A DNA stretch of 64,000 bases from Candidatus Gottesmanbacteria bacterium (GCA_016214885.1 JACRMP010000037.1:7675-71674); one strand, 5' to 3'; shown: positions 1 to 13,284, counted from the first letter of the stretch. A program made the numbers and translations. The notes: generated by a model from the sequence alone, not told the origin.

Positions 1-205
1 TTCAGGAGGTGCCCTACCTATGCAATATCTTCGACCTTTCGGTCGCCTTCTTGCATGGCAGCGTCATAAAGACGCGGGTTTCCCCATTCGGAAACCGCCG
101 GATCGCAGGATGTTGACTCCTCCCCGACGAATATCGCTGCCAACTACGTCCTTCTTCGGCACAACAGCCCAAGGCATCCATTATCGACTTGTAGCGTTGC
201 GGAGA
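1..205 (-). rRNA. rrl: 23S rRNA, 5' portion; gene continues beyond window start
   Basis: The reverse complement of ~30-200 contains ATGGATGCCTTGG, GAAGGACGT, CGGTTTCCGAATGGGGAAACCC and CATAGGTAGGG...CTGAA, which match conserved 5'-proximal 23S elements (E. coli-like GGATGCCCTGG / CCGAATGGGGAAACCC). The 5' end is estimated near 205. Confidence 0.7.
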
Positions 206-454: not shown

Positions 455-527
455 TGGACCCGGGCGGAGTCGAACCGCCTGCCTCTTCATTGCAAATGAA
501 GCGTTCAACCAGGTAAACTTCGGGCCC
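455..527 (-). tRNA. tRNA-Ala (anticodon UGC)
   Basis: The reverse complement folds as a cloverleaf: acceptor GGGCCCG/CGGGTCC with a G3:U70 wobble (the Ala identity element), D-stem GTTT/GAAC with a GG-containing loop, anticodon stem CTTCA/TGAAG with loop TTTGCAA (UGC), T-arm GGCGG-TTCGACT-CCGCC and discriminator A. CCA is not encoded. Confidence 0.8.
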
Positions 528-631: not shown

Positions 632-838
632 TCAGGACTCTCTCCTTGTAAGAAGTTCTACATCACACGCAAACGTCGCCGGTTTCGGTTGGTTTTGTAT
701 GAAGTGGTGATTCTCATGAAAAAGAAAAGTCTTGCCTCCGCATTCCGTATCACCGAATTATTGGTGAACAAAGGCAAAAGGTATTGTACCTGCGTGATAA
801 TTTGCTGTCAACCCCCTAATCGGAGGAGAAGATGCGGC

Positions 839-1723
839 TTATGTTATTGATCTCGCGAGGAGTCCTGAAAGTTCAGCGCCATCCATTTTATCGGCCTCCC
901 GGTTATTCCGGATAAACACCCCAAGCCCCATGTAGAGCATCTTGCCGGTAGCAGTATGCAGCGATGATTTCTCCTGAAGCATAGAAAGGCGTGTCACCAC
1001 CTGCTCAAATAAGGCGCCTGCAATAGGCACCTGCGATATAATACGCATATAGCTTTCGAGGGTAGCTCCGTTTACCAAATCGTTGGTCTTTTCAAAACCT
1101 ACCTGCAGCGTATCAGCGCCTTTGTCGGCCACCTCGTGGATATAACCCCTCTTCCCTGAAAGATGTTCGACAAGCATATTACCGAGTGCGGTTGCATATT
1201 TATCATTTAATACCTCAACAACTTTTTTCATACCGCCAACGCGCGCATTGAAGCGCAAATCGTCAGGAGTCATGAGCTTGGCATCTTTCTTAACTACCGG
1301 AAATAGCTTTTCAAGCGGCTTACTGGTTGCATAATCAAATGCGGTAAAAAGCGCAATTACCCCGGAAAATGCGGCTACCCGCTCCAGGCGTTCTTTTGCC
1401 CCGCCGATGTCTTTGCCGCCGCGGAAGTCCGCGTCTATCTTGCGGACGTGCTGCCCCATATGAGATACAAAGCTACCCGGTTTATATATCGCTTCATACA
1501 GCGCTTCGCGGAGCGCATCAAACTGCGGAGGCTTCTTTTTTTTGTCATACGGGGAATGTTCACCAACCTGGAATACTTGCTCCCAGTGCTTTTTCCGGTC
1601 TTCCATATATGCCTTCTTCCATGCGGCTGCCCCATCACCTGAGGGCGGGGTTGCAGGCTTTACTGTTTCTGCAGTAGTGGGGTAAGTTACTTTTACTGAT
1701 AAGGTTTCGACAGTCATATACAA
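839..1723 (-). CDS. hypothetical protein (cluster member A8)
   Basis: 294-aa ORF with no recognisable catalytic motifs. Its N-terminal region carries a W..Y..E..H..KKKKPPQFDAL motif also seen in other cluster proteins. Confidence 0.55.
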   Translation of the reverse strand: MYMTVETLSVKVTYPTTAETVKPATPPSGDGAAAWKKAYMEDRKKHWEQVFQVGEHSPYDKKKKPPQFDALREALYEAIYKPGSFVSHMGQHVRKIDADFRGGKDIGGAKERLERVAAFSGVIALFTAFDYATSKPLEKLFPVVKKDAKLMTPDDLRFNARVGGMKKVVEVLNDKYATALGNMLVEHLSGKRGYIHEVADKGADTLQVGFEKTNDLVNGATLESYMRIISQVPIAGALFEQVVTRLSMLQEKSSLHTATGKMLYMGLGVFIRNNREADKMDGAELSGLLARSIT

Positions 1724-1809: not shown

Positions 1810-2535
1810 TTATAACGGTTTTATGTTTTTCCCGATGTGGAACCCGGTAATGGCTTTCCCAAAAATACTCTGACCGAGCTTTGAGGTAGCGGTTTCTAAC
1901 AGGTGGTCAGATTTTTCATGAAGCCAGGTAACTGCGCTTCCTACAATCGGCAACTCTTCGACAATACGGAACGCAGCTTCCACGTTTACCGGATTAAAGA
2001 AATCAGCTGATGCGTAGGCAAGCTTGATCTTGCCATAAGTTTGCGGCACGGTATGACCGTGATGTACTTTTGTTTTTCCGTAAAGCCGGTCGGCCAAGAA
2101 TACCTGGGATATCACATTCCCCCACTCCGCAAGGAACGCGGATGTTTCAGAAACATACTTTGCATCATCAACGCCGGTCATAGCGCGAACCCAGGCATTA
2201 GCCACGCTGGCATATATGCTGTCCGATGCCCATTCTTCCACAAATTCCAAAGCAAACTGCTTACCTTGTGCGGACTTAGCCGCTTCTTTAAACTGAGGAC
2301 CTTTAGCTTTAAGCTCATGAATGCGGTCATGCATCGGCTCACGGATTACTTTGTCGACAAGGTGGCTTTCTGCAAAATCAACTGCAGTGGCTCCCACGAG
2401 GATAGTCGTGTTGATTCCTAGCCGCTTAAGGCTGTCTCCAGGCTGGGATTCATGTTTTTTTTCGGGGATAAGCAGACGCTGGAACCCCTGTTCTGCCGGG
2501 GTATATGCTCGTGTTGGTGCTGCTTCTTTATGCAT
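1810..2535 (-). CDS. hypothetical protein (cluster member A7)
   Basis: 241-aa ORF, co-directional and tightly spaced with its neighbours. No known motifs. Confidence 0.55.
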   Translation of the reverse strand: MHKEAAPTRAYTPAEQGFQRLLIPEKKHESQPGDSLKRLGINTTILVGATAVDFAESHLVDKVIREPMHDRIHELKAKGPQFKEAAKSAQGKQFALEFVEEWASDSIYASVANAWVRAMTGVDDAKYVSETSAFLAEWGNVISQVFLADRLYGKTKVHHGHTVPQTYGKIKLAYASADFFNPVNVEAAFRIVEELPIVGSAVTWLHEKSDHLLETATSKLGQSIFGKAITGFHIGKNIKPL

Positions 2536-2627: not shown

Positions 2628-2921
2628 TTATACGGAAAGGAGGCCCAATCCGGCGTTAATCAAACCGAGTGATTCCTCATGCTTCTTTTTTTCTTCCAGT
2701 GACATATCTTTTGTTGTGTGGCCCAAAAGCGACCGAATCTGCTGGGTGTGTTTTGTAATGGCAGCCTGATACTCCCGGTCAAATGCATCAATCCCCGCTT
2801 CCAGCTGTGCTTTGTCTTCTTCGCTGGCTTCTGCCATAGCTACCAGCACATCGACTTTTTGTGCATCACTGAATAATTTGGTTGCCTGAATTTTTTTGTT
2901 AATCCTCAAGTCGTTCATCAT
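2628..2921 (-). CDS. small helical hypothetical protein (paralog family T, copy 3)
   Basis: Start placed at the internal MMNDL, preceded by AGAGGGGGT (Shine-Dalgarno). The N-terminus shares the pattern I.A.....FSDAQK..VL with copies at 3913..4227 and 5124..5381. Confidence 0.55.
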   Translation of the reverse strand: MMNDLRINKKIQATKLFSDAQKVDVLVAMAEASEEDKAQLEAGIDAFDREYQAAITKHTQQIRSLLGHTTKDMSLEEKKKHEESLGLINAGLGLLSV

Positions 2922-3876
2922 ACCCCCTCTTTTTATTGTATTTATTATAGGAATTGCCGTAATACACGTTCTCCCCTTTATTAGGGGCACCTGCTTTGCC
3001 GCCCGACCAATCCTTTAATTTTCTGGTCTGACGGAGCTCTTTGTAATTCTTAGCAAATGTCGATAACCCATTCCACATCATTTCTACACCCAGTTGGGTA
3101 ACGGGGTTTGAGAGATTAAAAATACTTCCGACCATTCCCCGCTCTGCAACAGATGTAAGAGTGCGTTTATGAAGTAATTGCTTTTGCCCCGGCTTATGAA
3201 TTCCTAATGCATCATTCATCTGCATAACAGACCCTTCGACGCCAAATGGATACTTTTTTGGCGCACGCTGTTTATTCCCCCGGTATCCACCCCGGTATTT
3301 CCACTTCTCCACCCGTTTCTCTTTAATACGGGAAGCAGCACCTTTCATTTCATCTGGAATACTCTGCACAAAACCGGCTTCAAAGGCATTCGCAGCCAAT
3401 GAACGCAAAACATGCGGTGATTCAACTTGGGTAAAAATTGGCTGTGACCGGTAAGCAATAAAGTTATATAACGCAGCGAGCGCCACATCCTGTGTTCCTT
3501 CTTTTACAAAATGGGATATACGCGGATGCTTTTCTGACAATGCAGCAAGTTTTTTACCGGCACTCTCCCCCATGACAAACCGTTCAAAAATGGGGCCTTC
3601 CCCCCGCCAGGCCTTACTGAACATATCATCGGTTGCCAACTCTAGCCCCGCTCCCACCGCTCCGGTAAGCGCCCCGCGGGCCACGCGCATCAGTGCACTG
3701 TCGCCGTCAAACTTCCGTTTTGCCATGTCATTTGCCGAACGGATGTCGCTCACCATATCTGCGGCGGCCTTACCCAATCGCATAAACAACGATTGCTCCT
3801 TGGTTATTTTTTCAGGCAAAGGAGCGGAAGCCTCTTTTGGCAGCCAATGTTGCGGTATTTCGGCATGTTGTTGCAT
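2899..3876 (-). CDS. hypothetical protein (cluster member A6)
   Basis: 325-aa ORF with a glycine-zipper-like segment (GALTGAVGAGLEL) and a Lys/Tyr/Asn-rich C-terminus. Confidence 0.55.
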   Translation of the reverse strand: MQQHAEIPQHWLPKEASAPLPEKITKEQSLFMRLGKAAADMVSDIRSANDMAKRKFDGDSALMRVARGALTGAVGAGLELATDDMFSKAWRGEGPIFERFVMGESAGKKLAALSEKHPRISHFVKEGTQDVALAALYNFIAYRSQPIFTQVESPHVLRSLAANAFEAGFVQSIPDEMKGAASRIKEKRVEKWKYRGGYRGNKQRAPKKYPFGVEGSVMQMNDALGIHKPGQKQLLHKRTLTSVAERGMVGSIFNLSNPVTQLGVEMMWNGLSTFAKNYKELRQTRKLKDWSGGKAGAPNKGENVYYGNSYNKYNKKRGYDERLED

Positions 3877-3912
3877 AGCGTTATTTAAGCGTATAGGAGT
3901 TTGACAGTCCCG

Positions 3913-4227
3913 TCAAACACCGTCGTGTTGCGGAAAAAACTCCGCTGATTGTTTTTTTGCCTTATCCAATACATCCCGTTTTTCATCTTCAGTTAAATCG
4001 CTCGCCGCTACTTCTTCCTCAAATGCGCGTAGCGCCTTCGCAAGATCAGTGCGTAATGCTTTTTCCCGGTACACGGAATGCGTATCAAACGCCTCAAGCA
4101 TGTCCTCCACCCGTTTTCGATAATCATCGGGAAGGGTTTCCGGCTGATCCAATAACTCCTTTTTCTGGTCATCAGATAACACCCTGCTTTTATTTACTGC
4201 AGTAATAAATGCTTGGATATTTGCCAT
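3913..4227 (-). CDS. small helical hypothetical protein (paralog family T, copy 2)
   Basis: Start at MANIQAFITAVNKSRVLSDDQKKELLD, preceded by a GGAGGG Shine-Dalgarno. Paralogous N-terminal motif as above. Confidence 0.55.
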   Translation of the reverse strand: MANIQAFITAVNKSRVLSDDQKKELLDQPETLPDDYRKRVEDMLEAFDTHSVYREKALRTDLAKALRAFEEEVAASDLTEDEKRDVLDKAKKQSAEFFPQHDGV

Positions 4228-4228
4228 A

Positions 4229-5107
4229 TTATGTATGCCCTCCGTTAGTTGAAGGAGTATTGAATTGTTTAGCAATCAGCATGTTGTAGGCTAAATTTGT
4301 CGCAAACGGCATAACTCCTTTAGCTTGGATAAGCTGCCTGTTTGCGCTTGCATACATGCGCTCGACGAGTGCTCCTACCACAGGAATCGCACCGCCGAAC
4401 CGGAACGCACTTTCTATAAAGCCGGGATTTACGAATGAATTTACTACCCGTATATTTTTGGTTCCTGCATCAAACATAACGCCAGTCGCATTCACTATCG
4501 TGTTGCCTACCGCAGCTATAGTCCGCGATAGCGGGGAAACAAATCCGATATTGTCCCGGTTTGTAGCGGCCCTGGTGGCCACATCGGCGGCAGACCCTAC
4601 CAGCGCATCCGTGACAAACTCCCAGCCTACTTCAAGCGCCGCTTTGTTGCCGCTTTCCTTAAGGTTTATGGGCTTAAAAGGCCACACCCGGGCGCTTTCC
4701 AGCTTGAACAGCTTTTTTTGTGCAATAAGATCCCCCATTCTATCTAATCCGAATGATCCTGCCCCCAACACAAAAAAGGTAAGGAGCCTTCCCAGCTTAT
4801 GCGGCAGCTCCCTCCCACGAAGCTTGGCATCCAGTGCATTCACGCGCTCACCCAAGCTCGCGAACGTCGTTTTTTCATTGACATTTTTTATGGTTTCGGC
4901 GGTCATCATGGCAAGATTTCCCTGTACCGCTCCCGCTTCTCCCCGCTCAGCTAATGCTATGGGGGCTGCGACATCAAACACCTCCTGTAAATACTTATGA
5001 AACAGCGTATCGGCTTTTTTCTCAGGGGTTTTGCGTTCTGCTGATCCCTTGCCGACGTACACCCAATCAGTCTTGCCGTGAAAATTCTGTGTAATACTTT
5101 CTGCCAT
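4229..5107 (-). CDS. hypothetical protein (cluster member A5)
   Basis: 292-aa ORF with a glycine-zipper segment (FFVLGAGSFGLDRMGDL) and an N-terminal W.Y...E..PEKKADTLF motif. Confidence 0.55.
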   Translation of the reverse strand: MAESITQNFHGKTDWVYVGKGSAERKTPEKKADTLFHKYLQEVFDVAAPIALAERGEAGAVQGNLAMMTAETIKNVNEKTTFASLGERVNALDAKLRGRELPHKLGRLLTFFVLGAGSFGLDRMGDLIAQKKLFKLESARVWPFKPINLKESGNKAALEVGWEFVTDALVGSAADVATRAATNRDNIGFVSPLSRTIAAVGNTIVNATGVMFDAGTKNIRVVNSFVNPGFIESAFRFGGAIPVVGALVERMYASANRQLIQAKGVMPFATNLAYNMLIAKQFNTPSTNGGHT

Positions 5108-5123
5108 AGTATGGGTTAATTGA

Positions 5124-5381
5124 TTATTGAGCCTTACCGCTCCCTATATACACTTTCTCACTGCCCCCGCGCTCAAGTTCGGCAAGCATAATGTCGAGTT
5201 TTTGTTTTACATCATCTTCGTTAGCGAGGATAAACTGCCGCTCCGCAGCAAAAAACTTCCCCAATGCATCCGTCTGGCGATCCGTTAAACCCGGCACCAA
5301 ATCCAAAAGCATTAATCTATCCTCATCGGACAAAATAATACTTGCTTCAATTAGCGTTACTAGTGCAATTTTTTTATTCAT
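5124..5381 (-). CDS. small helical hypothetical protein (paralog family T, copy 1)
   Basis: 85 aa, MNKKIALVTLIEASIILSDEDRLMLLD, preceded by an AGAGGG Shine-Dalgarno. It overlaps the upstream gene's stop by 4 nt. Confidence 0.55.
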   Translation of the reverse strand: MNKKIALVTLIEASIILSDEDRLMLLDLVPGLTDRQTDALGKFFAAERQFILANEDDVKQKLDIMLAELERGGSEKVYIGSGKAQ

Positions 5382-6439
5382 ACAGAAGCCCTCTGCGGCA
5401 TGGGTGTAAACACCTCAGCCGCTTTTGCCACCTGCGGATTCTTCAATTTATCTATTTTTTTACTGAAGTGCGAAACAATAATATCTTTGGCTTTCTTAGC
5501 CCCCTCAAAACTCATTTTTGTTTCTTCATACCGGTTATGAAGGTATTGCCACGCAGGAGGAATAAGCCCTGCCCATACTTGCCCGAATAATTCTGCTCCG
5601 AATGAACCAAACACCACAACACTGGGCACATCAGGTGTGGGATCAATAATAGGCCCCAACGAATGAAGGAGTGTATGCTTACCGGCAACTTTGAGTCTAT
5701 GTCCTGCTTTTTCCCCAAATGTTGTAGCCGTCACCTCTCCCCTGGCGGAAGATAATATTTTTTCTGCGTCCGTTAACGCTTTACCGCTTTTTACGGCTTT
5801 TTCATAATTTAATACATAATCAGCATCCCGCAGATCATGGACAATGTGCTTCCTTACAAACTGGGAAACCTTACCTTCGACGGCCACTCCTTTTTTAAGC
5901 CCCTTCTCTAGACCCGCTTTTGCCACTCTTGTCGCCTGGCTTGCCTCCTGTGTTGCTACTGCCAATGCTGCTTTAGCCGCATCTGCCTTTTGCCTGGCCC
6001 TCTCGCTTTTACTAAACCACCCCGCCCACCGCTCAGCCTTTGATGCTGTTTTTTGTGCTTTAATAGCTGCAGTTTCTGCGTAAGCTGCTTTGTTTACCTT
6101 AGAGGCTAAACTCTCAATCTTGGCTCCCCCTTTTGCCAGAGCTATCCCCTCACTGGCGAGCGGCACAAACGGGATTATGGCTAATGCAGCTTTCACATCC
6201 TTAAATGCGATCCCCATCCTTTTTTTGAACATATCCTTATACAACCCGCCGAGCGATGCCAGAAGGCTCATCTGTTCGGTATTGGTCGTCACGTCGGCAC
6301 CAATAAGCGCACGGTTTGCTTCTACAGCTGCTTTTGCATCACCGATATGATTCCCCAACTCCGGAGAAACAGACATTCTGTTCTCGAGGGTCTCAGGAGA
6401 AAAATCATTCATAGCTTCAGTATGGGGCGTTTCTCTCAT
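5378..6439 (-). CDS. hypothetical Ala/Lys-rich coiled-coil protein (cluster member A4)
   Basis: 353 aa with a long Ala-rich helical region and a glycine-containing hydrophobic segment (LLASLGGLY...IIPFVPLASEGIALAKGG). Confidence 0.55.
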   Translation of the reverse strand: MRETPHTEAMNDFSPETLENRMSVSPELGNHIGDAKAAVEANRALIGADVTTNTEQMSLLASLGGLYKDMFKKRMGIAFKDVKAALAIIPFVPLASEGIALAKGGAKIESLASKVNKAAYAETAAIKAQKTASKAERWAGWFSKSERARQKADAAKAALAVATQEASQATRVAKAGLEKGLKKGVAVEGKVSQFVRKHIVHDLRDADYVLNYEKAVKSGKALTDAEKILSSARGEVTATTFGEKAGHRLKVAGKHTLLHSLGPIIDPTPDVPSVVVFGSFGAELFGQVWAGLIPPAWQYLHNRYEETKMSFEGAKKAKDIIVSHFSKKIDKLKNPQVAKAAEVFTPMPQRASV

Positions 6440-6458: not shown

Positions 6459-8681
6459 TTATCGTTTTGGCCGGGCGATAGCCTCCAGCACCTGATGATC
6501 AGAAAGCGTCGGTTTCGCCCCTATTCGGGGAGCAGTATCCCGTATATTTATCTTCTCAAAATCAATAATTTTCTCGGAAATATTCTCAAACACCGGATCA
6601 TGGGTAATAGCTACTACCGTCATATCGGGGCGTTCCTTTCGCAGGCGCTGGATAATATCCATCACCTGTTGGGCTGATGCTTCGTCGAGACTCGCTGTCG
6701 GCTCGTCCAGCACCAATATTTTTGGATTCTTAAGCAGTGCCCGCGCAATCCCAATCCGCCGCAGCTCTCCGCCAGAAAAATGTTTTGTCGTAGTATCCAG
6801 ACGATCCTGCAAATGCTCTAAACGAAGGTCTTTAAGTATTTTCGTTATAACGGTATCGGGCACGTTTTTATGCGACCACAACAGCAGGTTTTCTTTAAGC
6901 GTCATCCCTTCCAGAATTTGCGGGTTCTGGTTGGCATACCCCACCATAGTAGCCAGCGCCTCAGGGCCGTATTTTTTGATACCATCAATGGGAATTCCCC
7001 CGATTGCCACTGTGCCTGATTCGGGGGTATAGAGACCCACAAGGTTGCGGATAAATGTTGTCTTACCTGTCCCCGATTCGCCTTTAATTGTCACAAACGA
7101 GCCTTGTGGTATATCCAGCGATACATTCCGTACTATCCCCTTGTAGGAAAGGTTTTCGATATGGATGTCCGTATTAGCTAATTTTGTCACGGGTATACGT
7201 GCCCGTTCTTTTGGACCATTGGGGCGGTCTAACGTATCATATTTCCCCAGAAGCTCTTCCATGCGCCGTATATCCTGGATATCCGGGATGATGTTGTCTA
7301 CATACATACGCGTGAGACCGGCAAATGCTGCTCTCATCTCCATCTGTTGGTTTTTGGAATTGATTACCCGGGAAAGCGCATCGACCCCGAAATTAAATGC
7401 GCCTTCTCCTGATAATTTGCCGGGCGGCCTTTTTTGATTAAATTCAATAGCTTCACTCATAAACGGCAGCACAACATCCATCGCATCAAACAACATATTC
7501 ATCTGCCGCTGGCTTGCGAGCTTTTGCCGGAGCCCCTTGCTTGCCACCGTGTCCCGTTCCGTCAATAAATCGAGCATACTATCAGCACCGCTGGTTGCAC
7601 TCCCTGATGTCCGGACGGATTCAAGGCCTGCTAGCGTTGTCATAAGCTTTGTGTTCACTTTATCCATTCTAGCCAGCTCTGCCGCTCTGTTCTTCTGCAT
7701 TAGTTTTGCGTTCTGTTCACTGCGCATCAGCAAAAACGGCATTTTAATAAGCGTCGAGGCAAACTCCAATTTTCCCGTCACATACTGTCTCGGCAACTGG
7801 CTGAGTATCGAAAACATGGTGGGCAAAAACTCGGTATAGGTAGTGCGGACAAGGTCAATGGTAGATAGCTTACCGTTATTAATAATCTCCATTATCTCCC
7901 CCGCCGGCTTATCGTGAAGAAACTCAAAATCCCGCATAAATAACGATTCCGCTATCCGGGTATTTACCGCGCGCTGCAGATTCTGCCCTTCACGAACAAT
8001 GAGCTTATGGGCAAATTTTTCGGCCTGCCTCCCCACAAACCAATGTGCGGTTCCCGCAACCCACGGCCAGGTAGCGGAAAGCAATAATCCCAGCGCCTTC
8101 TTTTTCGTTTCCCCGGGGAGACGCTTAAGCGTTGCTCCAAGCTCCTGTAATGGCGTTTGACGCGCCTGCAGGAGCTCCAAACCATTCTCTACCTTGTCGG
8201 TAAACGCCTTCCTGGCATCTTCACTTATCCATGGCTTCGTCTGATAGCCACCAATAACACTGCCTGCCAGGTCGGTGGCAGCGTATATGCCGGTTACTGT
8301 CTGCCAATTACCGCTGCCTAATTTATAGGTGGTGAATAACTCCCCCATTACATCACGGTATTCCTGCATATTGATAACAGTTGGAGATTCTGGGGAAGTT
8401 GAAGGTTCGGGAGTTAGGCCGCTTTTTTTCCGGGCATAAGCAGCTTCTGCCTGGGCCATAACCGCTTTGTAGTCGTCTTTGCCGGCAATCAAACCTTCGT
8501 TCATGAGGTCGTGACCCACTGAAGTCGTTAAATCTTTAAGTTCATTAGGGTCAGGTGATTCGTTCTTGGAGACTTTTTGCGCTACCCGCGCTGCAGAAAC
8601 TAATGTCTCGGGTGATATCGCAAAAGGCGCAACCTCGCTTTGGGGCTTTTCAATGCGTTTACTTGATACCTCTGCCGTCAT
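6459..8681 (-). CDS. atypical ABC transporter ATPase fusion protein (N-terminal ~480-aa non-canonical domain plus C-terminal NBD)
   Basis: C-terminal Walker A GESGTGKTT, ABC signature FSGGELRRIGIARAL, Walker B ILVLDEPTASLD and H-loop AITHD. The middle region has an ABC-exporter ICL1-like motif (FLHDKPAGEIMEII...D) but only 1-2 convincingly hydrophobic helices. An extra ~180-aa N-terminal extension is present. Confidence 0.75.
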   Translation of the reverse strand: MTAEVSSKRIEKPQSEVAPFAISPETLVSAARVAQKVSKNESPDPNELKDLTTSVGHDLMNEGLIAGKDDYKAVMAQAEAAYARKKSGLTPEPSTSPESPTVINMQEYRDVMGELFTTYKLGSGNWQTVTGIYAATDLAGSVIGGYQTKPWISEDARKAFTDKVENGLELLQARQTPLQELGATLKRLPGETKKKALGLLLSATWPWVAGTAHWFVGRQAEKFAHKLIVREGQNLQRAVNTRIAESLFMRDFEFLHDKPAGEIMEIINNGKLSTIDLVRTTYTEFLPTMFSILSQLPRQYVTGKLEFASTLIKMPFLLMRSEQNAKLMQKNRAAELARMDKVNTKLMTTLAGLESVRTSGSATSGADSMLDLLTERDTVASKGLRQKLASQRQMNMLFDAMDVVLPFMSEAIEFNQKRPPGKLSGEGAFNFGVDALSRVINSKNQQMEMRAAFAGLTRMYVDNIIPDIQDIRRMEELLGKYDTLDRPNGPKERARIPVTKLANTDIHIENLSYKGIVRNVSLDIPQGSFVTIKGESGTGKTTFIRNLVGLYTPESGTVAIGGIPIDGIKKYGPEALATMVGYANQNPQILEGMTLKENLLLWSHKNVPDTVITKILKDLRLEHLQDRLDTTTKHFSGGELRRIGIARALLKNPKILVLDEPTASLDEASAQQVMDIIQRLRKERPDMTVVAITHDPVFENISEKIIDFEKINIRDTAPRIGAKPTLSDHQVLEAIARPKR

Positions 8682-8811: not shown

Positions 8812-9660
8812 TTACTTTTTCTTTTTTTTTGCGGCGCGCTTTTTTATTGCTTCAATTTTTATCTGATATGCACTCTTCTGCCCTGCTTCTACCCCTCTCA
8901 ATCCCATCGCTTTTCTTGCTGCCAAAATCTCATGAAGACCGCTCTGCATTTCATTTCTTCGTCTTACCAAGTCATCCACTGGTCTCCCAGCTTTCATGGC
9001 TTCTCTAATTTGCTTAGATAATTCCTCCACTTTGGTCAGTTCAGGCCGCCCGGAAAGCAGCGTTTCAGCCCGAGGAAGATCTCTCATGGCAATAAGACGT
9101 TTTTCCTTCAAACGTATCAGCGCTTCTCCTTGGTATTTACCGCTTTTAATTGCCTGATCAAGCGCTTCCACCCGCTTCCTATATCCTGTTGCTGCTTTAA
9201 TAGATTCAGAAACAGCGTCCACATTAATTGGCCCTTTACTGCTTCCTTCCCTACGGAAGAAATTAAACTTCCCAACCATTGACCGGAGGCTATCGTGGGC
9301 GCGTTTTCCGGCATTTGCCATTTTTTCACCCATTCCGCCCATGCGACCAATCCTATCCCGCATGCCGCCGACATTGGTGATAAGTCCCCCGCCCAATCCG
9401 GCAACGGTGACACCCAAAACAGTCGCTCCCCAATGGGTGGCCACGTCAATTTTTGCAGATGAAAGTGCGTCCTGTTCAATCTGGGCAAATGCTGCCTGCT
9501 TGTCTTCCGGGGAAAGATTTGCCGTCGCCTTTGCAATAAGATCAGCGTTGTTCTGATAAAATTTCTCTTTGGATCCTTGGATGGTGAATGACTTGCGGAC
9601 TTTTTCTTTAAGCCCTGCAAACCAACCTTGTCGTTCTGGTGACATACCTGCTTCGGTCAT
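8812..9660 (-). CDS. hypothetical protein (cluster member A3)
   Basis: Start placed at MTEAGMSPE, preceded by GAAGGAGGTTGTT. The protein has a glycine-zipper segment (GVTVAGLGGGLITNVGG), a C-terminal coiled coil and a poly-Lys tail. Confidence 0.55.
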   Translation of the reverse strand: MTEAGMSPERQGWFAGLKEKVRKSFTIQGSKEKFYQNNADLIAKATANLSPEDKQAAFAQIEQDALSSAKIDVATHWGATVLGVTVAGLGGGLITNVGGMRDRIGRMGGMGEKMANAGKRAHDSLRSMVGKFNFFRREGSSKGPINVDAVSESIKAATGYRKRVEALDQAIKSGKYQGEALIRLKEKRLIAMRDLPRAETLLSGRPELTKVEELSKQIREAMKAGRPVDDLVRRRNEMQSGLHEILAARKAMGLRGVEAGQKSAYQIKIEAIKKRAAKKKKK

Positions 9661-9690
9661 AACAACCTCCTTCATGAACTAACTAAATTA

Positions 9691-10002
9691 TTATATATTC
9701 TCGTCTGTTAATGCCTTTTCTACGTTCTCGAGTACCCCGGTCATCGTTTCTTCTATTTCCTTCAGCGCTTCCCCATCCTTGATGGAATCCCCTATAAGCT
9801 TTGCATAACTTTCAACAGTCACGCGTGACTTCGGATCAGCTGCCAAGTACTCTAGGTCTTCTTGTGGCATATATTTTACCATAATCGGCCAAACAGTGCT
9901 CTGGAGGCCTTCGGAAATGAGGACATAGAGCTCATTTTTTTCGGATTCCGACAGCTGTGACTTCTCTATCCTTTCAACAATTGCCTTAAGTTTTTCTTCC
10001 AT
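9691..10002 (-). CDS. small hypothetical protein (paralog family S, copy 2)
   Basis: Start at MEEKLKAIVERIE, preceded by AAAGGAGGAAAT. About 65% identical to 10871..11200 across the motif GLQSTVWPI.VKYMP...L..LA..P......Y.KLI.DS.KDG.ALKEIE. Confidence 0.6.
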   Translation of the reverse strand: MEEKLKAIVERIEKSQLSESEKNELYVLISEGLQSTVWPIMVKYMPQEDLEYLAADPKSRVTVESYAKLIGDSIKDGEALKEIEETMTGVLENVEKALTDENI

Positions 10003-10030
10003 ATTTCCTCCTTTAATCACTATAGCACAC

Positions 10031-10834
10031 TTATTTCTTTACAAAATCCAATGGTGTGGGTTTTTTTGGCCATTTTTCATGCGGCAATGCAACCGTAAGC
10101 CGATGCCAATCATTCAGGGCTTTTTCATATGCGCGCTTCGCTTTTCCCTGCGCTCCCCGCTCTTGAAGTTTTTTTACGCCTTCACCTACTTTATTCTCAA
10201 CTGCTTCTAAATCTTTGTACATTGTATAAGGTAACTTAACTGCTTCCACCGCGGCACCCCCAACAACCTTTGCTGCATCAACCATTGCCGGTCCACCGAC
10301 AAGACCCCAAACGTATTTGCCACCCTCCCCCACCTTCCGGATCGGCCAAAACATAATTTTGGCTCCCCACTCAATGGGTGTTACAACTACTTTAACCCCA
10401 AACATCGCGACATCCATCCCGGTTTTAACGGCATTATAGGAAACATCCTTCACCGCCTGGAACACGGTCCGTGAACGGTTGTCTACCCGCATGCGCGCAG
10501 CGGCATTACGGCCATTTACTGCTATAGCACGGTCATTTAGCTTCCCATACACCGCCGCCCCTCCCACCAGGGCGCCGCCGGCAACGAGGGAATCAATGAT
10601 TACGGAGCCTACTGCCGCACTTTTAGATTGCTGCCTGAGCCGTAATTCGAGAAGTGCCATCTGGCTTTCAGTAATATCCTTGGGGAGATTTTCTGCGATA
10701 CTGTTGTATTTTTTAAGATAGATTTTATCCGCACGCCCGTTAAGCGTCAGGTTATCATGCGACCAGCTTTTAATGCGGTCGACAATTCCCTTGCCGGATA
10801 ACCCTTTCATTTCCCCATGTGGCCGTTGTTCCAT
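10031..10834 (-). CDS. hypothetical protein (cluster member A2)
   Basis: 267 aa with a glycine-zipper segment (VIIDSLVAGGALVGGAAVYG) and a C-terminal KRAYEKALNDWHRL...HEKWPKKPTPLDF motif shared with A8. Confidence 0.55.
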   Translation of the reverse strand: MEQRPHGEMKGLSGKGIVDRIKSWSHDNLTLNGRADKIYLKKYNSIAENLPKDITESQMALLELRLRQQSKSAAVGSVIIDSLVAGGALVGGAAVYGKLNDRAIAVNGRNAAARMRVDNRSRTVFQAVKDVSYNAVKTGMDVAMFGVKVVVTPIEWGAKIMFWPIRKVGEGGKYVWGLVGGPAMVDAAKVVGGAAVEAVKLPYTMYKDLEAVENKVGEGVKKLQERGAQGKAKRAYEKALNDWHRLTVALPHEKWPKKPTPLDFVKK

Positions 10835-10870
10835 AGTGTTTTATCCGCCGGACAGAAGGCGGTTCCCCTT

Positions 10871-11200
10871 TTATTCCAAAACCGGCGCCTGTGGCACCCC
10901 CTGCTCCGTTAATGTTTTATCAACGGCATCAAGGATTTGTTGCATAAGCGTCTCGATCTCTTTCAGGGCTGCCCCGTCTTTGACGGAATCTTCGATAAGT
11001 TTGCCGTAAGTTTCCAGGTTTACTTTAGAAGGATTTTCCGCCAGATCATCAAGCTGATCTTTCGGCATGTATTTAATGAGGATCGGCCATACCGTGGACT
11101 GCAACCCCTCGGCAAGCGCCGTATATACGTCCTCTTTTTCATTTTCCGCAAGCTTCGACATCTCGACCCTCGTTACCACTGCACGAAGTTTATCATCCAT
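10871..11200 (-). CDS. small hypothetical protein (paralog family S, copy 1)
   Basis: 109 aa, MDDKLRAVVTRVE, preceded by AAAGGAG. Paralog of 9691..10002. Confidence 0.6.
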   Translation of the reverse strand: MDDKLRAVVTRVEMSKLAENEKEDVYTALAEGLQSTVWPILIKYMPKDQLDDLAENPSKVNLETYGKLIEDSVKDGAALKEIETLMQQILDAVDKTLTEQGVPQAPVLE

Positions 11201-11226
11201 AAAAAACTCCTTTCACTAGAACACTA

Positions 11227-11862
11227 TTATGGCCTCGCCTTAAGCCTGGTGGGTTTTTGTTCCGCAAACGGACTTTTGATCCAGTTTACAACCCTATCGA
11301 CTTTCTTTTTGGTCATGCGTACGGCAATTTCCGGAGCGCTCATCACTGCTTCTGCCCCCGTCCGTACCGCTTTGACAAGCCCCAATTCACCGCGCATTAA
11401 TCCCGCTCCCGCCGCATGAAGTCCAAGCTTCACGTCAAATCGGGCAAGGGCAAGCCGCTTAAAGGCATCTCTTGGCGGACCAAACGGGGTTAATTTCCGG
11501 GGCAACCAGGTGAGAATGTTATAAGGAATATCCAAAGTAGCGGCTCCAAAAGAAACAACTGCCGCTTCGACACGTGCGCCGGTGCGTTGAGAAAATTCCG
11601 CTATCTTCCCTACCAGTCCAAGCTCTTTGCCTGCATACATATGATGCAGAATCTTGTCCATATTCTCAACGTAATGCTTGTACACCCCTTTTCCTGAGGC
11701 ATTCTTCCGCCCATCGATATCCTGACGGATCTCCCAATAATCTTTATTGGTTTGCTGTACTTCCCCTATTGCTCCCCGTACGGCTTTGCCGACGGCGCTT
11801 TCACTCATCGCTTCCTGGAACGTTGTTTTCTCAAATCCTTCAGCCATAATCCTCCCTTTCAA
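11227..11862 (-). CDS. hypothetical protein (cluster member A1, first gene of cluster)
   Basis: 211 aa, preceded by AAAGGGAGGAT. Glycine-zipper segment GLHAAGAGLMRGELGL. Confidence 0.55.
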   Translation of the reverse strand: MKGRIMAEGFEKTTFQEAMSESAVGKAVRGAIGEVQQTNKDYWEIRQDIDGRKNASGKGVYKHYVENMDKILHHMYAGKELGLVGKIAEFSQRTGARVEAAVVSFGAATLDIPYNILTWLPRKLTPFGPPRDAFKRLALARFDVKLGLHAAGAGLMRGELGLVKAVRTGAEAVMSAPEIAVRMTKKKVDRVVNWIKSPFAEQKPTRLKARP

Positions 11863-11961: not shown

Positions 11962-13284
11962 TCAGCTCTTCATGGAAGCTAAAATCCTCTCCAGAGCCAC
12001 GACGAATGCCGCAGTGCGTAAATCAGTTTTATACATCACTGAGGCCTCCCAGACCGCTCCCGCCGCATCCGCCATTTTTTTGGCAAGTTTTTTATTTACC
12101 TGGGCTTTCGTCCAGTGGGCAGCTTTTCTATTCTGCTCCCATTCAAATGCCGACACCGTGACGCCACCGCTATTGCTTAAGATGTCCGGAATAACCGGGA
12201 TCCCCTTCTTATATAAAATAGTGTCCGCCTCCGGCGTGGTCGGACCGTTTGCCATCTCAAGCACCACCTTAGCCTTCACCTTCCCCGCGTTCTCGGCGGT
12301 AATGGCATTTTCGAGCGCCGCCGGCACCAGAATATCAACGGGCAGCTCAAGAAGCTCATTATTGGTCACCTGGCGTCCTTTTTTGAGATCACACACCGAG
12401 CCTGAGCAATAGCAACCCGCCAGATACCCATTCTTTTTCTTACAGTCCAGGGTGAGCGCTGGATTAATCCCTTCAGGCACATAAATGCCTCCTTTGCTGT
12501 CCGATACCGCAACCACCATTATCCCCGCTTCCTCCAGAAACTTAGCCACGTTATAGCCAACATTGCCGAATCCCTGCACTGCCGCGGTAAGCTTGCCCGA
12601 TAACTTAAGCTTTTTAATAATCGCCTGCAGCACAAACAGCCCGCCAAGTCCGGTCGCCTCTTCTCTCCCTTCGCTCCCCCCGTTGGTAATCGCTTTTCCG
12701 GTAAATGTACTTTTCAGCTTCAGGATATCTTTTTTGGTAAGTGTTTTACCCAATACTTTTGCCTTTATTTTTTGCGAAGCAATAAACTCCTCTACCATCC
12801 ATCCCATAATGACCCCGTTGGTGTTGACGTCCGGTGCCGGCACATCGGTATCAGGGCCAATTACATCTGCGATAGCTTTGCCGTATGCCCTACTTAACCG
12901 CTCAAGCTCACCCTGGGAAAGTGTTTTGGGATCGACGATAATGCCGCCTTTTCCTCCGCCGAGCGGCAAATCTGCCACTGCACATTTCATTGCCATCCAA
13001 AATGACAAAGCTTTGACCTCGTCGAGGCTCACATTATGGTGATACCGGATGCCCCCCTTATACGGACCCTTCGCGTTATTAAACTGCACACGGTAGCCCT
13101 GAAACAACCGCTGCGACCCGTCATCCATCATAACCGGAAGAGTCACATTTATAACCCGTTGCGGCTCCCGGAGTCTGGCTACCTTCTGGTCTATATTGCC
13201 CAATTTTTTCTTTGACCCGGCAAGCACCTTGTGTGCTTTGGCTAACTGCTTCATGGCTGACTCAAATGGATTGATAGCATTCAT
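11962..13284 (-). CDS. gdhA: NAD(P)-dependent glutamate dehydrogenase
   Basis: GGGKGG motif (LPLGGGKGGIIVDPK) and Rossmann GFGNVG. 440 aa. Confidence 0.85.
   Translation of the reverse strand: MNAINPFESAMKQLAKAHKVLAGSKKKLGNIDQKVARLREPQRVINVTLPVMMDDGSQRLFQGYRVQFNNAKGPYKGGIRYHHNVSLDEVKALSFWMAMKCAVADLPLGGGKGGIIVDPKTLSQGELERLSRAYGKAIADVIGPDTDVPAPDVNTNGVIMGWMVEEFIASQKIKAKVLGKTLTKKDILKLKSTFTGKAITNGGSEGREEATGLGGLFVLQAIIKKLKLSGKLTAAVQGFGNVGYNVAKFLEEAGIMVVAVSDSKGGIYVPEGINPALTLDCKKKNGYLAGCYCSGSVCDLKKGRQVTNNELLELPVDILVPAALENAITAENAGKVKAKVVLEMANGPTTPEADTILYKKGIPVIPDILSNSGGVTVSAFEWEQNRKAAHWTKAQVNKKLAKKMADAAGAVWEASVMYKTDLRTAAFVVALERILASMKS

Follow-up and report, generated by a model that had tools for sequence, protein, structure and literature searches.

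How three small genes that alternate with much larger ones are related to each other, and with which of their neighbours they work, is the question raised by a locus of a Candidatus Gottesmanbacteria bacterium (GCA_016214885.1 JACRMP010000037.1:7675-71674). The whole stretch of DNA that was analysed, 64,000 nucleotides (nt) long, is called the window below, and the three genes, T1, T2 and T3, lie between its positions 2628 and 5381. An earlier note had taken them for paralogues and had joined each of them to the larger gene downstream. We found that T1, T2 and T3 are, as judged from their sequence profiles, real, diverged paralogues, and that each of them is coupled to the gene upstream. We tentatively propose, giving this slightly less than an even chance, that the T proteins are acidic helical partners or chaperone-like subunits of the basic proteins encoded upstream of them. 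The genes concerned, in the order of the minus strand and with isoelectric points (pI), are:

5378..6439, minus strand: g353, 353 amino acids (aa), pI 9.6, putative upstream partner of T1; one Gly/Ala-rich hydrophobic segment (residues 77-102)
5389..5394, minus strand: Shine-Dalgarno sequence AGAGGG of T1, within the g353 3' end
5124..5381, minus strand: T1, 85 aa, pI 4.7; start overlaps the g353 stop (ATGA); conserved C-terminal VY(V/I)GxGK(A/P)
4229..5107, minus strand: A5, 292 aa, basic, all-helical, putative upstream partner of T2; paralogue of A7 and g294
4238..4243, minus strand: Shine-Dalgarno sequence GGAGGG of T2, within the A5 3' end
3913..4227, minus strand: T2, 104 aa, pI 4.8; starts 1 nt past the A5 stop; fastest-evolving of the three copies
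2899..3876, minus strand: A6, 325 aa, pI 9.8, putative upstream partner of T3; Lys/Gly/Tyr/Asn-rich tail; unrelated to A5 and A7
2923..2930, minus strand: Shine-Dalgarno sequence AGAGGGGG of T3, within the A6 3' end; a purine-rich GGAGG-type site in all orthologous loci
2628..2921, minus strand: T3, 97 aa (96 aa if the second ATG, 2918, is used), pI 5.6; starts 23 nt within the A6 3' end
1810..2535, minus strand: A7, 241 aa, A5 paralogue, not followed by a T gene

T1, T2 and T3 are conserved genes of one family

All three open reading frames are present on the minus strand where the earlier note had placed them, and all three are conserved coding genes. Their ratios of nonsynonymous to synonymous substitution rates (dN/dS), calculated against two related genomes, are 0.05-0.09 for T1 and T3 and 0.22 for T2. 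T1, T2 and T3 are thus real genes under purifying selection, and their lengths and reading frames are kept in every relative examined.

Single sequences reveal the relationship at the margin of detection. T1 and T2 align with a Smith-Waterman z of 4.0, a score reached by 2 of 1000 shuffles (BLASTP E=0.009), T2 and T3 align in the same register with a z of 2.4 (28/1000 shuffles), and the alignment of T1 with T3 is out of register; thin profiles of three to seven close relatives each give hhalign probabilities of just 1-25%. Richer profiles were built from 13-18 orthologues per T gene, taken from related loci that were found via the well-conserved neighbour A5. With these, the hhalign probability is 91% for T1-T2 (P=1e-6, z=10.9), 56-68% for T2-T3 (P=5e-5 to 1e-4, z=7.6) and 27-29% for T1-T3 (P=6e-4 to 7e-4, z=5.7). 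The profile alignments are all collinear from residue 1 to about residue 50, the scores climb steadily as more orthologues are added, and not one of 200 column-shuffled target alignments reaches the observed score in any of the three pairs. The similarity, which the earlier note had proposed to set against shuffled controls, thus exceeds them at the profile level, with the single-sequence comparison remaining marginal.

As a further control, the T hidden Markov models (HMMs) were run against every stop-to-stop open reading frame of at least 40 aa in the six frames of the window. They found each other's genes (T1 to T2, E=7e-4; T3 to T2, E=4e-4; T2 to T1, 0.013; T2 to T3, 0.049), and the sole match elsewhere was a weak one of the T2 HMM to the small gene S1 (E=0.17), so that the window holds exactly three T copies. 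A mixed profile of the family scores T3, T2 and T1 at 122, 88 and 69 bits. Bridging sequences connect the subfamilies: protein P0186 of locus L023 (loci in other genomes are cited by L numbers) scores 36, 26 and 19 bits with T2, T3 and T1, a member from L033 scores 70 bits with T1 and 26 with T2, and a tandem T1-like protein also scores with multiple subfamily HMMs. Profiles, six-frame control and bridging sequences together bear out the family of three paralogous copies.

The N-terminal pattern of the earlier note is exact for T1 and T2 and partial in T3 (LFSDAQKVDVLV). A looser module, h-x-x-h-x-x-[ST]-x-h-h-[ST]-x-x-[EQD]-[KR]-x-x-h-h ... h-x-x-h-h-x-x-[FY]-[DE], is present in all three. 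We define the T family as proteins of 70-130 aa with this module in collinear N-terminal position and a significant score with the mixed profile. The description of the T proteins as acidic and helical proved correct: besides the pI values listed above, the median pI across orthologues is 4.6 for T1, 5.3 for T2 and 5.6 for T3, and an AlphaFold2 model of T3, for which an alignment of 70 family sequences served as input, is all-helical. Its mean predicted confidence (pLDDT) is 91.5, with five helices at residues 2-13, 19-29, 34-70, 75-80 and 82-96. Tryptophan is absent from T1, T2 and T3.

T2 carries a second helix-cap motif of the LS/T-[DE]-x-[EQ]-K type near its C-terminus (residues 66-90, AFEEEVAASDLTEDEKRDVL), which is similar to the N-terminal motif of T2 itself as well as to the N-terminus of the S family described below, and may be an internal repeat.

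The family recurs in other Patescibacteria

Among 1.84 billion proteins, the mixed profile recovered at least 162 clusters at 50% identity (E<=1e-3), almost all of 67-130 aa in length, with 68 T3-like, 53 T1-like and 25 T2-like clusters. A metagenome scan for T relatives was made with a narrow alignment of seven sequences. Sequencing runs such as SRR22216447 and SRR16110243 come from samples in which the organism of the window occurs. All related loci with an informative name belong to Patescibacteria (Candidatus Woesebacteria, Candidatus Gottesmanbacteria and metagenome-assembled genomes of the "Patescibacteria group"); the Gammaproteobacteria label on several third-party (TPA) assemblies with related loci is probably a placeholder. 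The earlier assignment of the window to a genome of the candidate phyla radiation (CPR) is borne out by these names, and the alignment and wider HMM search that the earlier note had suggested yielded relatives in this group.

Apart from the ATPase domain of one ATP-binding cassette (ABC) protein, the T, S and larger proteins showed no Pfam, NCBIfam, PHROGs or PADLOC family in scans whose protein set differed between the four libraries. For T1-T3 there was no Pfam family even at E<=1, and a Pfam scan of 148 superfamily members returned no recurrent family, with scattered noise such as RRF and apolipoprotein. An RRF identity was considered and rejected, as its weak matches (Pfam E=0.035; PDB 1eh1 E=0.013) were judged to be the noise of long charged helices. 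Profile searches against PDB sequences gave no significant match, and Foldseek searches with the T3 model against PDB and BFVD and with the A5 model against PDB found nothing at E<0.6. A full-text literature search found no description of the T family or the cluster, and a study of CPR protein families lists 35 Microgenomates-enriched families, mostly hypothetical, and does not describe the T family (PMC6744442). The T family is thus previously undescribed.

Each T gene is coupled to the larger gene upstream

The T genes follow their upstream neighbours with hardly any space between them: in the window, the junctions measure -4 nt (g353-T1), +1 nt (A5-T2) and -23 nt (A6-T3). Across 14 genomes, the g353-to-T1 junction spans -4 to +12 nt in all but one insertion locus, the A5-to-T2 junction -8 to +10 nt, and A6 and T3 overlap by 8-26 nt in every case. 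The gaps between a T gene and the gene downstream are variable in the same genomes and reach up to 96 nt. The insertion locus, L016, holds an 89-aa open reading frame at 9441-9710 that starts with MFFYVYVLESLRYKQLYIGSTRNLVRRVKEHN and looks GIY-YIG-like by eye; it lies between the g353 homologue and T1 and is the sole interruption of this junction seen.

Distant genomes keep the same arrangement. There, a T-like gene stands after a gene for a protein of 186-277 aa without a Pfam family, at a distance of 1-4 nt in six loci and of 50 nt in L023. What comes next is a convergent gene in L026, L027 and L030 and, in L033, the housekeeping gene NDK, which is unrelated; no RNA gene came up when the DNA downstream of these T genes was searched. 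In L030, the large gene and the T gene form an isolated two-gene operon flanked by divergent and convergent genes, and this operon shows that the minimal unit is a large protein followed by T. As the pairs in L030 and L033 have no ABC gene or other cluster genes nearby, the large-T pair can stand alone. The upstream proteins from L024, L026, L027 and L030, compared with A6, A5 and g353, gave a faint C-terminal resemblance to A6 only (P=0.04), which is too little to establish orthology. As a second mark of the family we take a start that overlaps the stop of an upstream gene for 190-450 aa or stands no more than about 12 nt from it; the three T genes of the window show it, and so do those of 13 further genomes and six distant loci, the exceptions being L023 (50 nt) and L016 with its mobile insertion.

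A crude mirror-tree comparison of 11 genomes points in the same direction. T2 co-varies best with A5 (r=0.63; residual +0.40, compared with -0.11 for A6), and T3 pairs poorly with A7 (r=0.15, residual -0.58), with T3-A6 favoured over T3-A7.

The signals for translation lie within the upstream genes as well. The earlier note had called the Shine-Dalgarno sequences unusually strong in a genome where many genes lack one, and both parts hold: the five small genes of the cluster, T1-T3 and two S genes, all have GGAG or GAGG at -22..-4, compared with just 9 of the 55 larger genes of the window (hypergeometric probability about 4e-4). GAGG or GGAGG stands 4-11 nt before each T start, and S1 and S2 have AAGGAGG and AAGGAG. 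Every orthologous locus keeps the site of T3; for T1 and T2, conservation extends to only part of the loci.

A proposed partner or chaperone-like role for the T proteins

Each T gene is the second cistron of a pair in which a larger basic protein comes first (g353-T1, A5-T2 and A6-T3). Because the ribosome-binding site of T lies within the end of the upstream gene, the two proteins would be made together and in coupled amounts. Each T protein could then bind the preceding product of its pair, a basic and partly hydrophobic helical protein, and serve it as a dedicated partner, adaptor or chaperone-like subunit. The scaffold common to all three may be the conserved helical module formed by the first 50 or so residues, and the divergent C-terminal half may confer specificity for the partner. 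Together with the ABC-type ATPase, with A7 and g294 and with the pairs of the S family, these pairs might work as a single conserved system of 14 genes.

Charge is consistent with such a partnership. The acidic T proteins stand beside basic upstream proteins across orthologues (median pI of 9.6 for g353, 8.7 for A5 and 9.4 for A6), and six of the seven distant upstream partners are basic as well (pI 8.6-9.4). Also in favour are the co-variation of T2 with A5, the synteny of the whole cluster and the confident five-helix model of T3, whose N-terminal half is like generic three-helix bundles that bind proteins. From these observations and the gene coupling we infer physical binding and a chaperone or adaptor role.

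Several observations weigh against this proposal. A T1-like member from a distant genome has a basic pI of 9.0, and no natural fusion of a large protein with T was found among the best 150 of the 162 cluster representatives. The mirror-tree signal is weak, comes from 11 genomes and may reflect recombination blocks; moreover, T1 co-varies most closely with A6 and the ABC protein, not with its own neighbours. The motif VYVGxGK, common to the C-terminus of T1 and the N-terminus of A5, hints at a link between T1 and the protein downstream. In some genomes the T-to-downstream gap is only 2-17 nt, so that all genes may encode subunits of one operon-encoded complex. Finally, the likeness of the T3 model to binding modules lacks significance: its N-terminal half superposes on generic three-helix binding bundles (the Z domain of staphylococcal protein A and the XD domain of paramyxovirus phosphoprotein) over about 47 residues at a root-mean-square deviation of about 2.5 Å, with target-normalised TM-scores of about 0.6 and Foldseek E-values of 1.8-8, which are not significant, and this fold is too simple for ancestry or function to be deduced from it.

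The short motif of T1 and A5 also occurs elsewhere. T1 ends in VYIGSGKAQ (5124-5150) and A5 has VYVGKGSAERK near its N-terminus (residues 15-26, 5030-5065), with the common form [VI][YF][VL]Gx[GA][KE][AP]; the same motif is found near the N-terminus of other larger cluster proteins (for example PVYEGVGRPE and PHFVGSADA). It was seen in T1 and A5 of the window and in L015, L018, L020, L024 and L026, and may represent a shared recognition peptide.

The T genes are part of a conserved 14-gene cluster

The T genes and their upstream neighbours belong to a cluster of 14 genes, which lies entirely on the minus strand between a glutamate dehydrogenase gene and tRNA and 23S rRNA genes. Its order is g211, S2, g267, S1, g287, ABC, g353, T1, A5, T2, A6, T3, A7, g294. 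Beyond the genes listed above, the locus contains:

11962-13284, minus strand: glutamate dehydrogenase, directly before g211
8812..11862, minus strand: g211-S2-g267-S1-g287, upstream half of the cluster; basic larger proteins alternating with acidic small proteins of the S family
11227-11862, minus strand: g211
10871-11200, minus strand: S2, small acidic S protein
10031-10834, minus strand: g267
9691-10002, minus strand: S1, small acidic S protein
6459..8681, minus strand: ABC-type ATPase, 740 aa, with an ABCB-like nucleotide-binding domain; centre of the conserved cluster
839..1723, minus strand: g294, about 292 aa, probable start ATG 1717; third of the A5/A7 family; the cluster ends with it
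455-527, minus strand: tRNA
1-204, minus strand: start of the 23S rRNA

This gene order is kept across divergent relatives, down to 39% A5 identity, and the same locus, from the glutamate dehydrogenase gene to the rRNA, is found in all close and distant relatives examined. A5, A7 and g294 are paralogous (BLASTP 6e-9 for A5-A7; hhalign probability 95-97%; reciprocal HMM matches) and form a family of mostly basic, all-helical proteins of about 240-295 aa, to which A6 and g353 are unrelated. A5 has at least 41 relatives, with identities down to about 35%; its model, of moderate confidence (pLDDT 66), is helical throughout and matched nothing in the structure search.

Alternative explanations

The conserved cluster invites an explanation in which pairwise specificity plays no role. 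T, S and the larger proteins could all be stoichiometric subunits of one ABC-driven assembly, with gene order reflecting the order of assembly or expression. We consider this unlikely. It would account for the conservation of the 14-gene order across divergent genomes, for the sets of paralogues within the cluster (three T, at least two S, three A5-like and up to three ABC proteins) and for short motifs that recur in different members. The isolated large-T pairs in L030 and L033, which have neither the ABC gene nor other cluster genes nearby, argue against it and for pairs that work on their own.

According to the earlier note, each T protein works with the protein encoded downstream (T1-A5, T2-A6 and T3-A7), and the locus arose by threefold duplication of this two-gene unit. 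An iterated arrangement of small and large genes does exist, and A5 and A7 are paralogous, as duplication of such a cassette predicts. The T1 C-terminus (VYVGxGKPS) mirrors the A5 N-terminus (VYVGKxEAPKP), the T1-to-A5 gap is -1 to 17 nt in 9 of 13 genomes, and in L032 a gene for 223 aa lies 14 nt after the T1-like gene. However, a unit of T plus the downstream gene is not supported: the upstream junctions are tight and the downstream gaps variable, distant genomes retain the upstream partner and have a convergent or unrelated gene downstream, and T3-A7 and T2-A6 co-vary poorly. In addition, a terminator-like hairpin lies between T3 and A7 (2569-2551), and T1 and T3 are the least similar pair of T proteins although their downstream genes are paralogous. 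That paralogy (BLASTP 6e-9; hhalign probability 97%) also corrects the view that the three downstream proteins are non-homologous, as A6 alone is unrelated. A downstream cassette is distinctly unlikely.

The ABC protein could suggest that T or the larger proteins are substrates for export by a PCAT-like transporter, with the N-terminal LSDxxK of the T proteins as leader. The protein has an ATPase domain of the ABCB/bacteriocin-exporter type and the overall length of PCAT1, and the double-glycine leader consensus, LSxxELxxIxGG, is vaguely like the LSxxxK..LL of the T proteins. Such a function is very unlikely for this locus. PCAT transporters have six hydrophobic membrane helices, yet the "transmembrane" region of the ABC protein gives no more than a weak ABC_membrane match (E=0.16) and contains no hydrophobic transmembrane segment (best 19-residue Kyte-Doolittle mean 1.15), nor do 19 homologues from 13 genomes have one (best mean 1.06-1.79). 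A C39 peptidase domain was not found on the ABC protein, and no GG site follows the T motif, which lies within a confidently predicted helical bundle in the T3 model. The isolated pairs, moreover, occur without any ABC gene.

Toxin-antitoxin or toxin-immunity pairs, in which a small acidic protein neutralises a basic, membrane-active toxin, would look similar in some respects. Type II antitoxins and small immunity proteins are likewise small and acidic and translationally coupled to a larger basic protein, several of the larger cluster proteins have Gly/Ala-rich hydrophobic segments, and some members vary strongly between close strains (identities of 57-76% for T2, 52% for g294 and 42-64% for g267). 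Nevertheless, we regard this as highly unlikely. Neither Pfam, NCBIfam nor PADLOC yielded a toxin, antitoxin or defence family; unlike the patchily distributed, mobile modules of this kind, the T locus is fixed, vertically inherited and syntenic beside housekeeping genes in all relatives that were examined. Among three close strains, A5 keeps 94-96% identity, and T1 and T3 are under strong purifying selection.

That the T proteins are unrelated charged helical peptides, alike by chance or composition, is extremely improbable: the weak single-sequence scores, with T1-T3 out of register and 28/1000 shuffles for T2-T3, and the 1-25% of the thin profiles would fit it, but scores that rise with added orthologues, 0/200 shuffles, collinearity from residue 1, cross-hits confined to T genes apart from one weak S1 match (E=0.17), and bridging sequences speak against it.

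Likeness to known systems

For the T proteins as putative partners of the upstream proteins, the closest analogies come from secretion systems. WXG100/EsxA-like and Lap proteins of type VII secretion are helical proteins of about 100 aa, which occur in paralogous copies beside larger helical proteins and are dedicated binding partners. The T proteins share their size, helicity, paralogous copies and adjoining larger helical proteins. They differ in that neither T1-T3 nor the 148 family members match WXG100, DUF3130 or DUF3958 in Pfam, and in that T1-T3, without Trp and with a five-helix model, do not have the hairpin with a central W-x-G. No match to an FtsK/SpoIIIE-type ATPase (EssC/EccC) was found among the cluster proteins scanned, whose sole ATPase is of the ABC type, and the T gene, unlike the genes for type VII partners, lies downstream of its partner gene.

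Class I chaperones of type III secretion (CesT/SycE) are small and acidic (pI 4-5) and encoded beside the basic or hydrophobic protein that they bind. With pI values of 4.7-5.6 and 85-104 aa, the T proteins resemble them in size, acidity and adjacency, features that are generic and do not define a family. These chaperones have a mixed alpha/beta fold; the T3 model, in contrast, is all-helical and has no PDB match, and there are no type III secretion genes and no sequence or structure match to this system.

A further likeness is found within the cluster itself. S proteins (median pI across orthologues 4.5) resemble T proteins in size, acidity and alternation with basic larger proteins, and carry the same hxxhxxSxL-S/T-[DE]-x-[EQ]-K motif at residues 17-22. 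The best match of the S HMM in the window outside the S family is T2 (E=0.005). A distant relationship of S and T is possible on these grounds; profile support is weak (hhalign probability 8-22%), with the S N-terminus aligned out of register to the C-terminal repeat of T2, and a conserved core of the S proteins, STVWP(I/V), is absent from the T proteins.

Significance

CPR bacteria (Patescibacteria) have small genomes, but a large share of what these genomes conserve lacks annotation. That one of them holds a conserved set of hypothetical proteins is by itself no surprise, and the present work does not alone settle a long-standing question. It defines one such family and a likely functional unit, in which the small acidic T protein comes after a larger basic one, and locates this unit within a cluster of 14 genes that is conserved in the Patescibacteria genomes examined. 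The result provides concrete pairs for co-expression, and the odd, apparently soluble ABC protein merits attention.

In a wider and rather improbable reading, the cluster could encode a Microgenomates-specific multi-subunit machine around an ATPase that derives from an ABC exporter and no longer possesses hydrophobic membrane helices. At least five client-adaptor pairs, each a basic client plus a small acidic adaptor (three T and two S), would serve this ATPase, as would the A5-type paralogues. T and S would then constitute a new class of dedicated adaptors or chaperones without counterpart outside CPR bacteria. Such a machine could have a core function, for example in envelope or membrane handling or in host interaction, beyond the standard machinery of these reduced cells.

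Further features of the locus

The S family and the ABC gene vary in copy number. S1 and S2 are 53% identical to each other, the S family reaches four or five copies per locus, one of them past the rRNA genes, and tandem S-S fusions occur in two genomes. S-family members elsewhere were seen at:

L015, 3732-4370
L018, 1981-2763
L005, 19473-19787

Two or three tandem ABC paralogues are found in some genomes.

The identities between close strains form a mosaic. For the comparisons window-L005, window-L006 and L005-L006, g211 is 92, 61 and 58% identical, g294 52, 53 and 92%, and g267 64, 42 and 43%, while A5 and the S proteins stay 89-97% identical among the same three strains. This pattern looks like allele replacement by recombination or like diversifying selection on some members.

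Of the 55 genes, 10 have a -10-like TAnn[AT]T box whose end lies 3-10 nt ahead of the start codon, compared with 5.5% of all ATGs, which suggests that some mRNAs are leaderless. The ABC gene is an example, with TACAAT 6 nt upstream of its start. Separate large-T transcripts, each from a leaderless promoter of the larger gene, were considered and found unsupported for A5, A6 and A7; among the larger cluster genes, only the ABC gene and g287 have such a box. Terminator-like hairpins with T-runs lie on the minus strand between T3 and A7 (2551-2569) and between A7 and g294 (1727-1747), so that transcription of the cluster may be split into several units.

Wherever the related loci reach far enough, the cluster is followed by the rRNA genes. 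In the window, a near-consensus sigma-70-type promoter (TTGACA-17-TACAAT, 11/12; 783-811, minus strand) precedes the tRNA and the 23S rRNA 5' end.

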